Both the position numbers and the translations under genes were made by a program. This document shows, one piece after another, positions 19,929 through 23,078 of a DNA stretch of 33,725 nt (the first letter of the stretch is position 1; each line of letters opens with the position of its first letter). The DNA lies in contig CAYTMY010000001.1 in the NCBI GenBank assembly GCA_964439075.1, positions 1 through 33,725 on the forward strand. The letters run 5' to 3'. The notes beneath the pieces are model-generated. The model made no database searches and had not been told where the DNA came from. It worked only from the letters and a program-made list of their open reading frames with translations. The stretch is from an uncultured Lachnospiraceae bacterium. GTDB lineage: Bacteria > Bacillota > Clostridia > Eubacteriales > Anaerofustaceae.

Positions 19929-20648
19929 TCAGTAGAAAAATCCGGTGTGAGAATTTTTATATTCCGAAATACGTTCTTTGTAAGCATCCATACTTTCATT
20001 TTCAAAAATAAGTTTTGGGTTTTTCACACCTAATTCATATAATAATTCAATCGTAAAATATGGGTTTAGAATAAGTAACGGACCGATGACATAGGTTGCA
20101 TGAAAATTATTTTTTCTCAAACCTTCTTTTTTTGTGTTTTTGTTAAAGCCTACGCCTTTTTCAGTAATAAAAAGCGGCGAAATATTATCATCCGAATAAT
20201 ACGAATAGGTGAATTGGCTTTTGTACCCAACGATTTCCGTATTATTAAATTTCCCCAAATAAAGAGAATTGTATCTGTTCATCATGTCTCGACGCGTTGT
20301 AATGGGAAATATATGCAATCCTTTTGTATAAGTACCGTCAATATCGATTATTCCACGTCCGAAAATTTCCAATGCATTTCCGGTTATAAGAAAGTGGGTG
20401 TCCCTTTCTATCAGTTCCGATATTCTGTCTTTATAAGCGGAAAGCTCGTTAATGACCATTAATTGAGCATCTTCCGTCATGCTGCCCATATATATAAGGT
20501 CCACATCATTATCGGCAAAATACGGACGTTCGTTTATATGAGTTTCTTTAATTATCGTATTCTCTATTGAACCTTTTATATATCTGATATTTCCCAAATC
20601 GCCATACAAATTGCATATTTCGGGGAACAGAATTTCAATCAACAACAT
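19929..20648 (-). CDS. GatD-like (CobB/CobQ-type GATase_3) protein that apparently lacks the catalytic Cys and His
   Basis: 239 aa, collinear with my recollection of S. aureus GatD (NLYGDLGN; VDLIYMGSMTEDAQ vs CDIFFIGGGSDREQ; KKEGLRKNNFHATYVIGP vs KKEGIHYKNLLGTYLHGP). The nucleophile elbow reads FLITGNALEIFG, so Thr89 takes the place of Cys. The His position reads YVIGP, so Ile188 replaces His. The start overlaps the MurT-like stop by 10 nt. Confidence 0.8.
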   Translation of the reverse strand: MLLIEILFPEICNLYGDLGNIRYIKGSIENTIIKETHINERPYFADNDVDLIYMGSMTEDAQLMVINELSAYKDRISELIERDTHFLITGNALEIFGRGIIDIDGTYTKGLHIFPITTRRDMMNRYNSLYLGKFNNTEIVGYKSQFTYSYYSDDNISPLFITEKGVGFNKNTKKEGLRKNNFHATYVIGPLLILNPYFTIELLYELGVKNPKLIFENESMDAYKERISEYKNSHTGFFY

Positions 20649-22021
20649 TTTGTTTTTCTTTCCTTTATATATTTTGCGGTCTTAACAGCAACTTTATTGG
20701 CCAATTTGATCGAATCCGTACCGAAAAGCACATAGATGTTATCCATTTTAAAGTAACGCAGATATTCCGGAGAATCGAGTTCATTCTGTGTGCACTCAAC
20801 CTTATTTTTACTCACTCCTGCCAGAAGAAGACGTAAATAATAATCCTTTGCACGAGGCCCTGTCACCACTATATTTTTGATGCTGTCGTCGTTTAAAAAT
20901 TCGAAATCGCAGTCGTACAGCCAACATGTATTTTCCGACCAATGCTTTGCATCGTGTAGGTTGCTCATCATCATTATTATTTCTTTGTCTCCGGGGGTTT
21001 GTTTAATATAGTCAAATACCCTTGAGCATGCAAAGGCATTTCTGTCTTTGGCCATTTGTGAGGTGATTGTAATATCGTCTATTCTTTCGGTATGATATCG
21101 GCTATCCACTATTTTTATCTTTTCCAGTAATCTCGCTAAAATATTATGGGAATAGCCAATTTCTCTGAACAAAGCTATTACCGCTACCATATTATAAATA
21201 TTGAACACGCTGTCATTAAGCAGTTTGTAGTTTCCGCAGGAGCCTTTGTCTTTAATAGTAAGTGTTTTTGTCGCCAAATCGATAGTGCATCCCTCGAAGT
21301 CGTATTTTGGTGAACAGTAGCCGCAATGAGGGCAATATGCTTTGCCTATATGGTGGTAACGCAAATATTCATAGTTCAGTTTAGTATGGCATTTAGGACA
21401 AATTTGCAAATCATTTATGAGATTATTGCATTCTGTAATATCGGTTTCCATTTTCGAAATGCCGAAATAAGCACGTTCATTATCTTTGCATATATTTGAA
21501 GATATTAAATCGTCGGCATTCAATATAAGTTTTGTGGTTTTGGGTATGCTTTTGTCAAGAATTCCCGCAATGTATTCAGGGTGTCCGTTTCTCATTATCG
21601 AGTCTCTCGATAAATTGGTGATTATCAAATAATTAGGCAGTATATGTGGATAAATTTTCACAGATGAACGTTCGTCTATTTCAAAAACACCCGTTTCATA
21701 CTTGCATTTCCCAAATATGTTACAACCGTTTATAAGGCTTGTTGCAATCCCGGTGACAGTGTTAGAGCCTAGTCTGTTTTCGATGCATGATACGCCGTTA
21801 TAGTGCAACATATCGACTATAATGTTTGTTACGGTGGTTTTACCGTTTGTTCCCGTAATTCCTATGATTTTTTGTGGTTTGTCGATATGCTTTATAAAAT
21901 CGGGGCATATTTTCAAAGCAACAACTCCTGGGAAGTCGGTGGCGTTATGTTTAGTTATTTTCAGTACAAGCTTTGTAAATTTTGCGCCCCACAAAGCTAT
22001 ATGATATTGTATTTTTTTCAT
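20639..22021 (-). CDS. MurT-like Mur-ligase family protein (central Mur ligase domain + Cys4 zinc ribbon + DUF1727/MurT_C-like C-terminus)
   Basis: 460 aa. It has the P-loop GITGTNGKTT, FEIDE, a zinc ribbon (CPKC...18 aa...CPHC) and a C-terminal WLYDCDFE segment matching the MurT WIYDADFE block. A GGAGCAG Shine-Dalgarno lies 6 nt upstream, 19 nt after the ATP-grasp stop. Confidence 0.85.
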   Translation of the reverse strand: MKKIQYHIALWGAKFTKLVLKITKHNATDFPGVVALKICPDFIKHIDKPQKIIGITGTNGKTTVTNIIVDMLHYNGVSCIENRLGSNTVTGIATSLINGCNIFGKCKYETGVFEIDERSSVKIYPHILPNYLIITNLSRDSIMRNGHPEYIAGILDKSIPKTTKLILNADDLISSNICKDNERAYFGISKMETDITECNNLINDLQICPKCHTKLNYEYLRYHHIGKAYCPHCGYCSPKYDFEGCTIDLATKTLTIKDKGSCGNYKLLNDSVFNIYNMVAVIALFREIGYSHNILARLLEKIKIVDSRYHTERIDDITITSQMAKDRNAFACSRVFDYIKQTPGDKEIIMMMSNLHDAKHWSENTCWLYDCDFEFLNDDSIKNIVVTGPRAKDYYLRLLLAGVSKNKVECTQNELDSPEYLRYFKMDNIYVLFGTDSIKLANKVAVKTAKYIKERKTKCC

Positions 22022-22040
22022 GGTTTCTGCTCCGTTGTTA

Positions 22041-23078
22041 TTAATATTTAAATTCCGGTATTATCTCTTTTATTTTTGGTATTATTCCTATTCCCATAGG
22101 AGTTTGTCCAGGAAGTTGCCAAAAGTCATGCGCGCAATAGTTGTTGCCTTCGATTATTGCAGGTCCGTTTGGCGTTACTTCAATATCCCAACCCACATAC
22201 CTTATCTGCGGAACCTCATGTGCTGCTTGTAAAGCAAGCTCAACTGCTTCTTTTACCATAGGTACTTTCATGCCTATAAGCTTTATGTGCGAATAAGGAT
22301 GTTCTGTGAAATGCTCTCCTATAGTAGTATCACCTGAATGTGCAGGATACATAAAGATGCCGGAGATAATATCCACGGGACCATGGAGTCCGTAATTATC
22401 TACAATTCTTCCGTTATTGCCCATTTTAAAAACGACATAAATGCAGTGCGCGTGTCCTTTGGAATCAATCAAGGTGATTATGCGCAGTGTGTTTACGGAT
22501 AAAGGATATATCTTATTTATCTCAGGGTGATTTCTTATAACTTCTTCAAGCGTTGCGAAGTTTTTTTGTTTAACATAGTCATAAAAGGAATCTTCGCTCG
22601 AAAAATCAGCAGTCTTGAGTTTTTCACAACCTATGCCACAGCTTAGATCTTTCATTTTTGCGAAAATTTCCTCATGAGTCCTGAAAAAAGAAATAACGTC
22701 TTCTTTTGCAGCTTCTGACATGTCGATATACTCTCTGCCAATGTAAGACTTAAACTTCTTGTTGAATTCATCCTTATTGTCAAAAAAATGAGAATAGTTA
22801 CTGTCATTTAGCTGCATTATGAGTTTTTTGCTTCTGAATCTGGTTAAATACGTATTTTTTTGGCTATGTGATAAATTCCAAAATTCAAATATAACGTAGT
22901 CATAATAACCCGATCCATACAGAAAAAAAGAAACTGCCATATCAAAAGCGATGAATAGTATGCTTTTAGATGAGCGTTGATGCGCTGTACAGATTTGAGC
23001 TTTCAATTTTTTGATATTTGCATTCTTTACTACTCTAATCATATAATTAAGTCTGTTTTCCATTGTCATCCTTGGCAT
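22041..23078 (-). CDS. ATP-grasp family protein (sugar-transfer-associated ATPgrasp_ST-like / alpha-L-glutamate-ligase-related)
   Basis: 345 aa. The C-terminal signature (RYVGWDIEVTPNGPAIIEGN) and the FTEHPYSHIKLIGMKVP segment are typical of ATPgrasp_ST proteins. The N-terminus has a hydrophobic segment. Three in-frame ATGs are possible (23078, 23069, 23063), and the ATG at 23063 (MENRL...) has the best AAGGA Shine-Dalgarno. Confidence 0.75.
   Translation of the reverse strand: MPRMTMENRLNYMIRVVKNANIKKLKAQICTAHQRSSKSILFIAFDMAVSFFLYGSGYYDYVIFEFWNLSHSQKNTYLTRFRSKKLIMQLNDSNYSHFFDNKDEFNKKFKSYIGREYIDMSEAAKEDVISFFRTHEEIFAKMKDLSCGIGCEKLKTADFSSEDSFYDYVKQKNFATLEEVIRNHPEINKIYPLSVNTLRIITLIDSKGHAHCIYVVFKMGNNGRIVDNYGLHGPVDIISGIFMYPAHSGDTTIGEHFTEHPYSHIKLIGMKVPMVKEAVELALQAAHEVPQIRYVGWDIEVTPNGPAIIEGNNYCAHDFWQLPGQTPMGIGIIPKIKEIIPEFKY

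Follow-up and report, generated by a model that had tools for sequence, protein, structure and literature searches.

A MurT/GatD-like ligase pair lacking the glutaminase triad, often linked to an ATP-grasp ligase in gut Clostridia: a candidate glutamine-independent cell-wall ligase system

Introduction

What does a MurT/GatD-type enzyme do once its glutaminase subunit has, by all appearances, lost the ability to hydrolyze glutamine? The question is raised by three co-directional minus-strand genes in a 33,725-nucleotide stretch of DNA from an uncultured Lachnospiraceae bacterium (contig CAYTMY010000001.1), the whole of which is referred to here as the window. In the order of transcription, the genes encode an ATP-grasp ligase of the ATPgrasp_ST family (open reading frame 22041-23078, 345 amino acids as called from the first ATG), a MurT-like ligase (20639-22021, 460 amino acids) and a GatD-like pseudo-glutaminase (19929-20648, 239 amino acids). 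The original prediction, made for the stretch 19929-23078, was of a linked three-gene system in which all three residues of the catalytic triad are gone and the MurT-like enzyme uses a nucleophile other than glutamine-derived ammonia.

Read directly from the sequence, the layout is as predicted. A 19-nucleotide spacer (22022-22040, minus strand) separates the ATP-grasp and MurT-like genes and contains a GGAG Shine-Dalgarno sequence 9 nucleotides before the ATG of the latter; the MurT-like and GatD-like frames overlap by 10 nucleotides (20639-20648), with AAGGAAAG upstream of the GatD-like start. The three protein identities agree with Pfam and NCBIfam profile searches. The frame bounds stand as well, except that the ATP-grasp protein most likely starts not at 23078 but at the third ATG (Met6, 23063), because the cluster representative and the homologs are 340 amino acids long and an AAGGA lies 8 nucleotides before that ATG. 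Counted from Met6, the gene would occupy 22041-23063 and encode about 340 amino acids.

Our principal finding is that these proteins belong to a real, conserved variant of the MurT/GatD system, which forms a large, unnamed and apparently undescribed clade in gut Clostridia. As to its function, we propose, with a probability of roughly 45%, that it is a glutamine-independent ligase system which attaches an amine or an amino acid to a carboxylate of the peptidoglycan stem, that the nucleophile is not glutamine-derived ammonia, and that the ATP-grasp protein handles a D-amino acid.

Loss of the glutaminase triad

The GatD-like protein is recognized by Pfam as a GATase_3 protein (E=4.5e-8). Its AlphaFold2 (AF2) model, with a predicted local distance difference test score (pLDDT) of 95, matches S. 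aureus GatD (5n9m) with a template-modelling (TM) score of 0.85 and 6gs2_A with one of 0.84. In this model, the class-I amidotransferase fold is kept together with the C-terminal helix typical of GatD; part of the MurT contact in S. aureus is made by GatD helix alpha7 (PMC6113224). The two NCBIfam GatD equivalog models, on the other hand, give 61 and 57 bits against cutoffs of 450 and 400.

Compared with S. aureus GatD, Cys94 is replaced by Gly and Gly95 by Asn, so that the canonical elbow T-I-C-G-G becomes L-I-T-G-N-A-L-E, and His189 of the H-G-P segment is replaced by Ile (T-Y-V-I-G-P). The third triad residue, Asp349 of MurT, is Asn in the MurT-like protein, which has W-S-E-N-T-C-W where S. 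aureus has D-G-R-D-T-S-W. As for Arg128, the glutamine-capturing residue of GatD, an invariant Arg (R125) lies one column off, the residue at the aligned position being N, K or H. The triad columns were set by phmmer to the solved S. aureus GatD and MurT, by MAFFT with 120 homologs and by hmmalign of 150 representatives. All three routes align the catalytic residues with Gly, Ile and Asn, which rules out a rescue of the triad by realignment; alignment to the solved proteins and to the families restores no Cys, His or Asp, and this central element of the original prediction is thereby borne out. A nearby His (N-F-H-A-T-Y) was rejected as a catalytic residue, being 5 residues upstream and not conserved (consensus N-F-M-A).

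The replacements are a property of the family. HMMER was run exhaustively against 1.84 billion cluster representatives and yielded 161 GatD-like clusters at E<=1e-30, and the best 150 representatives (of 50%-identity clusters) were aligned. Among the 120 close homologs, which share 50-61% identity, every one has Gly and Asn at the Cys94 and Gly95 columns, within L-I-T-G-N-A-x-E, and the His189 column is I, L or T. Across the 150 representatives, the nucleophile column is Gly in 134 and Ser, Asn or Ala in the other 16, with Cys in none; His occupies the His189 column once, and I, L, V or T is found there elsewhere in the family. Such family-wide conservation of the substitutions rules out decay specific to this strain. 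As an aside, the 90%-identity cluster of a GatD-like protein (P0366) also lists 84-amino-acid TSCPD-domain proteins, which looks like an artefact of clustering or gene calling.

In S. aureus, the substitutions C94G and C94S in GatD and D349N in MurT abolish glutamine-dependent amidation of lipid II (PMC6113224; PMC3266927). The natural substitutions are thus those that kill the glutamine-dependent activity of the S. aureus enzyme, in support of the loss of glutaminase function. We conclude that the GatD-like partner, judged by its sequence, should be unable to hydrolyze glutamine.

A conserved ligase and a rebuilt interface

The MurT-like protein matches MurT_C (PF08353, DUF1727; E=8e-24) and Mur_ligase_M (E=1.6e-8), and it aligns with the solved S. 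aureus MurT in the PDB at E=6e-45. The MurT equivalog models of NCBIfam are the best for it, yet they reach 174 and 159 bits against a cutoff of 800. Its ATP/Mg motifs are kept, namely the P-loop GTNGKT, F-E-I-D-E (aligned to the Mg-binding E108 of S. aureus) and T-N..R-D, as are the Cys4 zinc ribbon and the MurT_C domain. The N-terminus is short and has no UDP-binding domain, the P-loop lying at about residue 56, as in S. aureus; a short N-terminus tied to the absent UDP-binding domain is a conserved feature of MurT (PMC6113224).

The surroundings of the former aspartate have changed in a uniform way. The sequence W-S-E-N-x-C-W-L-Y-D-x-D-F-E is found in 119/119 MurT-like homologs, and the loop varies by subfamily among W-S-E-N, S-T-E-N, S-S-E-N, G-S-E-N, K-N-E-V and P-[ST]-E-T. 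Every recovered subfamily motif has Glu at the position of S. aureus R348, and none has Asp349. The DNAAD loop of MurT, proposed to contact the stem peptide (PMC6113224), is also rebuilt in the MurT-like family. The strict conservation of T-G-N-A and Y-V-I-G-P in the GatD-like proteins and of W-S-E-N-x-C-W in the MurT-like proteins would indicate new interface motifs. Since new residues are fixed on both sides of the former active site, the interface appears to have been rebuilt under selection rather than left to decay.

It is appropriate to weigh at this point a conservative alternative that the original prediction did not consider, namely whether the pair might simply make D-isoglutamine in lipid II from the free ammonia of an ammonia-rich gut cytoplasm, with the GatD-like protein kept only as a structural element and the ATP-grasp protein carrying out an unrelated or loosely coupled wall reaction. 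In favor of this, the ligase motifs of the MurT-like protein are intact, and S. aureus MurT together with GatD C94G does amidate lipid II with NH3 at pH 8.5, while MurT alone is inactive (PMC3266927). This explains why a dead GatD would be kept. However, the S. aureus proteins did not use ammonia at neutral pH in that study (PMC3266927), and plain loss of the glutaminase predicts drift, whereas the former active-site positions carry invariant new residues in both subunits and the proposed stem-peptide contact has been rebuilt as well. The laboratory mutant, which shares the Cys-to-Gly change and is still required by MurT, is active only at pH 8.5, and its His189, Asp349 and DNAAD loop are unchanged, unlike those of the present family. 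Direct amidation from ammonia is therefore, in our estimate, an unlikely account, although one that deserves to be taken seriously.

Distribution and gene order

GatD-like relatives are encoded at 385 species-level genome loci in a scan of one genome per species, and gene order was read in the best 80 of these. The order ATP-grasp, MurT-like, GatD-like is found in 43 of the 80, so that the linkage, as predicted, extends well beyond one strain; it also recurs in loci L003 and L004 and in metagenome loci. The pair stands without an ATP-grasp gene in 22 of the 80, 7 have an additional Cys-less pair, more diverged and accompanied by an ATP-grasp variant of its own, and the arrangement is cut by contig ends in the remaining 8. 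Linkage to the ATP-grasp gene is thus widespread and frequent but not obligatory. By comparison, the MurT-like and GatD-like genes are adjacent in every locus where both are complete, and four representatives are natural fusions of the two.

The carriers are monoderm Clostridia, most of them uncultured; the named carriers are Lentihominibacter hominis, Brotomerdimonas butyrica, [Eubacterium] saphenum and Emergencia. When cultured carriers with a known wall type were sought among the cluster members, the labels gave only uncultured Clostridia, Oscillospiraceae and Ruminococcus sp. The closest locus belongs to a metagenome-assembled genome of an uncultured Lachnospiraceae and has the same flanking synteny. 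The GatD-like proteins are left as hypothetical by NCBI, and no published description of the Cys-less clade was found in open-access papers and bioRxiv, in keeping with the expectation that it had not been described before. No canonical murT-gatD pair was found in the window or within 10 kb in the 80 loci, the second pairs found being Cys-less as well.

Double Cys-less pairs lie side by side in L002 (4893-10111) and in L014, L015, L016, L018, L053, L069 and L070. The second pairs have the loop P-[ST]-E-T instead of W-S-E-N, and in all double-pair loci except L053 the second pair is accompanied by its own diverged ATP-grasp gene, on either strand. This arrangement suggests that the two pairs serve two different substituents or targets.

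The double pairs are also one of the observations that would fit a different acceptor altogether: the free carboxylate of meso-diaminopimelate, the C-terminal D-Ala, or precursors confined to the spore cortex or germ-cell wall. A link to sporulation might be read from gene order too, as spoIVA adjoins the MurT-like/GatD-like pair in 18 relatives, and likewise in L002, is present in the window itself (7470-8939, plus strand), and a SpoVB/MurJ-like gene lies beside some of the ATP-grasp genes. In the 18 related genomes, however, the MurT-like unit is close to spoIVA within a conserved der-plsY-gpsA-SpoIVA block, and the association may be plain synteny. In the window, spoIVA is preceded by a gene for the Der/EngA GTPase (6078-7412, plus strand), and 11 kb of sequence with unrelated genes separates the operon from spoIVA. 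Nor was any promoter or regulator specific to sporulation identified. We regard a different carboxylate or a spore-specific precursor as improbable.

Several other genes recur near the pair. In 28 of the 80 loci (for example L029, 12518-13300), the gene immediately downstream of the GatD-like gene, and on its strand, encodes a small M50-like peptidase of about 240 amino acids and is often followed by one for a LysM protein; the peptidase has a weak Pfam match and no NCBIfam match, and it is absent from the window. Together with the MiaB-like radical SAM protein, SpoIVA, the LysM protein, cardiolipin synthase and a major facilitator superfamily transporter, it was considered as a component and judged to reflect regional synteny, because these conserved neighbors of the pair are absent from the window's operon.

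The ATP-grasp protein and its neighbors

The ATP-grasp protein belongs to Pfam ATPgrasp_ST (PF14397, E=2.9e-36), and its homologs, at 51-69% identity, are 340 amino acids long. Its AF2 model (pLDDT 90) finds its best PDB folds in Ddl, RimK, PsnB, LysX and YwfE, with a TM score of about 0.4 and a Foldseek probability of 1.00 for Ddl, RimK, PsnB and LysX. No solved relative was found by a PDB sequence search even at E=10, and the fold matches are generic; the model, thus, predicts a generic carboxylate-amine ligase fold, preceded by a private helical N-terminal region of about 110 residues. Across 32 homologs, K97, K136, D293, E305 and N307 are invariant. The last two lie within I-I-E-G-N-N, a segment that we take to resemble the Mg-binding E-x-N motif of ATP-grasp enzymes, and by analogy the invariant residues are putative Mg/ATP ligands.

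Since Pfam describes the PF14397 family as associated with sugar transfer, one might suppose that the product is not peptidoglycan but the decoration of another envelope polymer, or else a small peptide or branched polyamide of the kind made by cyanophycin synthetase, an enzyme that joins ATP-grasp and Mur-ligase domains (PMC11915815). Neither version fares well. The ATP-grasp gene has no glycosyltransferase gene as its neighbor, either in the window or in the surveyed loci, and no glycosyltransferase or polymer-export genes are linked within the window. Cyanophycin models score only 15-18 bits, whereas MurT and GatD are the nearest proteins in both sequence and structure, and the C-terminal domain specific to MurT is present along with its short N-terminus. 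Cyanophycin synthetase CphA1 resembles the present system in combining ATP-grasp and Mur-ligase chemistry, but it is a single fused polypeptide with an ATP-grasp domain of another lineage, has no GatD-like partner and makes a cytoplasmic polymer. The recurrent neighbors, moreover, are peptidoglycan-related: class B sortase, Acyl_transf_3, MurE, RodA and SpoVB/MurJ-like genes are found beside family members. A product outside peptidoglycan is, in our opinion, very unlikely.

What the neighbors of the relatives add is a possible identity of the substrates. A full-length alanine racemase gene (alr equivalog, 340 bits) lies 4-78 nucleotides upstream of the ATP-grasp gene in 9 loci, with gaps of at most 24 nucleotides in 8 of the 9; one of them, L149, has the order GatD-like, Alr, ATP-grasp. 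An ornithine-racemase-like gene (349 bits, below the cutoff of 480) directly follows the ATP-grasp gene in L085 and L109. Diaminobutyrate-2-oxoglutarate transaminase genes directly precede more distant ATP-grasp relatives in 4 loci, and in L078 such a gene stands directly before the MurT-like/GatD-like pair, in the position of the ATP-grasp gene. (The L078 region, 7248-10699, has the pair loop S-T-E-N and housekeeping flanks, with no ectoine genes nearby.) Arginase is encoded beside the pair in two loci, its gene overlapping the GatD-like stop in L065 and being convergent in L042. In a neighbor-joining (NJ) tree, the Alr-linked and MurT-linked ATP-grasp proteins interleave within one clade. 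These neighborhoods, which belong to relatives and not to the window, point to ornithine, diaminobutyrate and D-alanine.

The same gene-order data bear on amidation from free ammonia. That the pair occurs without the ATP-grasp gene, and the ATP-grasp gene without the pair, is what a loosely coupled wall reaction would look like, but such a scheme leaves unexplained both the diaminobutyrate transaminase and arginase genes beside pairs and the recurring linkage of the ATP-grasp gene.

Proposed mechanism

We infer the function of the system as a whole from its sequences and those of its relatives. The MurT-like and GatD-like proteins would form a heterodimer of the MurT/GatD type, in which the MurT-like subunit would bind ATP, Mg and a membrane-bound peptidoglycan precursor and activate a carboxylate of the stem peptide by forming an acyl phosphate. 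Judging from homology, the carboxylate in question is probably the alpha-carboxylate of D-isoglutamate in lipid II. Given a GatD-like partner that should be unable to hydrolyze glutamine, and an interface that appears rebuilt, the nucleophile would not be glutamine-derived ammonia; it is more likely to be an amine-bearing compound, for instance a diamine, a derivative of a D-amino acid, or a diamino acid resembling ornithine or diaminobutyrate. As a second carboxylate-amine ligase, the ATP-grasp protein would either prepare this nucleophile or lengthen the new branch by a D-amino acid, which in this clade is most likely D-alanine.

Chemistry of this kind has precedents. Classical wall chemistry places Gly, glycine amide, D-alanine amide and, in B-type peptidoglycan, diamino-acid bridges at the alpha-carboxylate of D-Glu. 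Amines are documented there as well, in the form of cadaverine or putrescine in Negativicutes (PMC10628300). The likeness to the enzymes responsible lies in the proposed ATP-dependent ligation of an amine at the position-2 carboxylate, and no papers tying such additions to MurT-like genes were found among open-access papers and bioRxiv.

Several observations weigh against our proposal. A glutaminase-dead GatD supports ammonia-dependent amidation in S. aureus in vitro (PMC3266927); therefore, a missing triad does not in itself call for a new nucleophile. The target carboxylate is assumed from homology only. The pair has no adjoining ATP-grasp gene in the 22 loci mentioned above, and close orthologs of the ATP-grasp protein are encoded at places with no MurT-like gene nearby. 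No amine-supply gene lies beside the operon in the window, whose surroundings are housekeeping genes. Finally, each supply-gene association amounts to 1-9 loci, several of which possibly come from related lineages, and some of the associations involve the more distant ATP-grasp clades of the NJ tree. Two parts of the original prediction stand in modified form. The ATP-grasp protein, put forward as a component of the system, is better described as a frequent but not obligatory partner. A nucleophile other than glutamine-derived ammonia has gained comparative support from the Alr, ornithine-racemase-like, diaminobutyrate transaminase and arginase neighbors, so that this part is strengthened, not proven, its chemistry being still what we infer.

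It is tempting to be more specific: the clade might be the missing enzyme type that joins diamino acids or diamines to lipid II at the D-isoglutamate alpha-carboxylate, with the rebuilt GatD/MurT interface binding the amine instead of glutamine and the ATP-grasp protein adding D-alanine or another D-amino acid. We offer this as a tentative suggestion that is more likely to be wrong than right. If it is true, many uncultured gut Clostridia build position-2 branches or 2-to-4 (B-type-like) cross-links, for which we know of no assigned biosynthetic genes.

Comparison with known systems

The closest counterparts are the MurT/GatD lipid II isoglutaminyl synthases of S. aureus, S. pneumoniae, S. pyogenes and M. 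tuberculosis. They have in common with the operon proteins adjacent, translationally coupled genes, the middle domain, the Cys4 ribbon, MurT_C, the short N-terminus, the ATP/Mg motifs and the GatD fold with its extra C-terminal helix. The operon proteins differ from them in the triad (Cys to Gly, His to Ile, Asp to Asn), in the new invariant motifs and rebuilt DNAAD loop, and in falling far below the NCBIfam equivalog cutoffs; further differences are the ATP-grasp gene often attached and the presence, in some genomes, of two diverged pairs side by side.

A second line of comparison concerns the ATP-grasp protein. Ddl and MurF offer a likeness in that an ATP-grasp enzyme handling a D-amino acid works alongside a Mur-type ligase on the stem peptide. 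The ATP-grasp D-aspartate ligase works with a racemase, and in relatives of the operon a racemase gene lies beside the ATP-grasp gene. The resemblance is limited: Ddl is among the best structural matches, but with a TM score of only about 0.4, no sequence similarity to solved ATP-grasp enzymes is detectable, and the unique helical N-terminal region of about 110 residues sets the operon protein apart from both Ddl and D-aspartate ligase.

Transcription unit and surroundings

The region upstream of the ATP-grasp gene (23064-23207, minus strand) presumably holds the promoter and leader of the operon, with only a weak sigma-70-like match (23104-23077, 9/12 positions). No riboswitch or T-box that might name a ligand was detected in this leader, Rfam giving nothing above E=0.9. 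Beyond it lies a terminator-like hairpin with flanking A and U tracts (23208-23267, minus strand; folding free energy -24.4 kcal/mol, z -4.56), none of 200 shuffled sequences being equally stable. The hairpin is predicted to terminate the upstream unit, in which case the three genes would form a transcription unit of their own. The upstream unit encodes a 384-amino-acid protein with no Pfam or NCBIfam match (23453-24607, minus strand) and, in its 3' part, an open reading frame of about 50 codons (about 23290-23441, minus strand), after which the hairpin follows.

At the other end, the GatD-like stop is 1 nucleotide from the stop of a convergent gene (18560-19927, plus strand) for a predicted membrane protein of 455 amino acids, with a weak C-terminal RraB-like match (E=5e-4, below the cutoff); the same convergent neighbor is found in the closest relative, locus L003. 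Further away, 25885-28005 (plus strand) encodes a 706-amino-acid protein that, from its translation, resembles a surface protein with leucine-rich repeats; it seems to carry a signal peptide, a membrane segment in the C-terminal part and a tail rich in Lys and Asp. A leucine-rich-repeat protein is found at the equivalent position in L003. Two T-box leaders elsewhere in the window, at 12598-12792 (108 bits) and 31175-31385 (99 bits), both on the minus strand and both above the Rfam gathering score, precede class-I tRNA synthetase genes, namely 9906-12545, with a Val-tRNA-synthetase C-terminal arm, and 28049-31216, probably an isoleucyl-tRNA synthetase; we consider this ordinary regulation.

Implications for the clostridial cell wall

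The substituents of the position-2 carboxylate control cross-linking, surface charge, sensitivity to lysozyme and defensins, and recognition by NOD receptors. To our knowledge, the glutamine-dependent MurT/GatD is the only enzyme known for this carboxylate. The clade described here comprises at least 150 clusters (50% identity) and is represented at 385 species-level loci. It would be unable to use glutamine, and yet its sequences are strongly constrained. In gut Clostridia, the wall is either amidated straight from ammonia or given other amines or amino acids. In the latter case, genes would be assigned to classical, genetically orphan wall chemistries, and the statement "MurT/GatD present" in genome surveys would have to be read differently. 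Since cultured carriers exist, the question of what these bacteria attach to their walls is directly testable.

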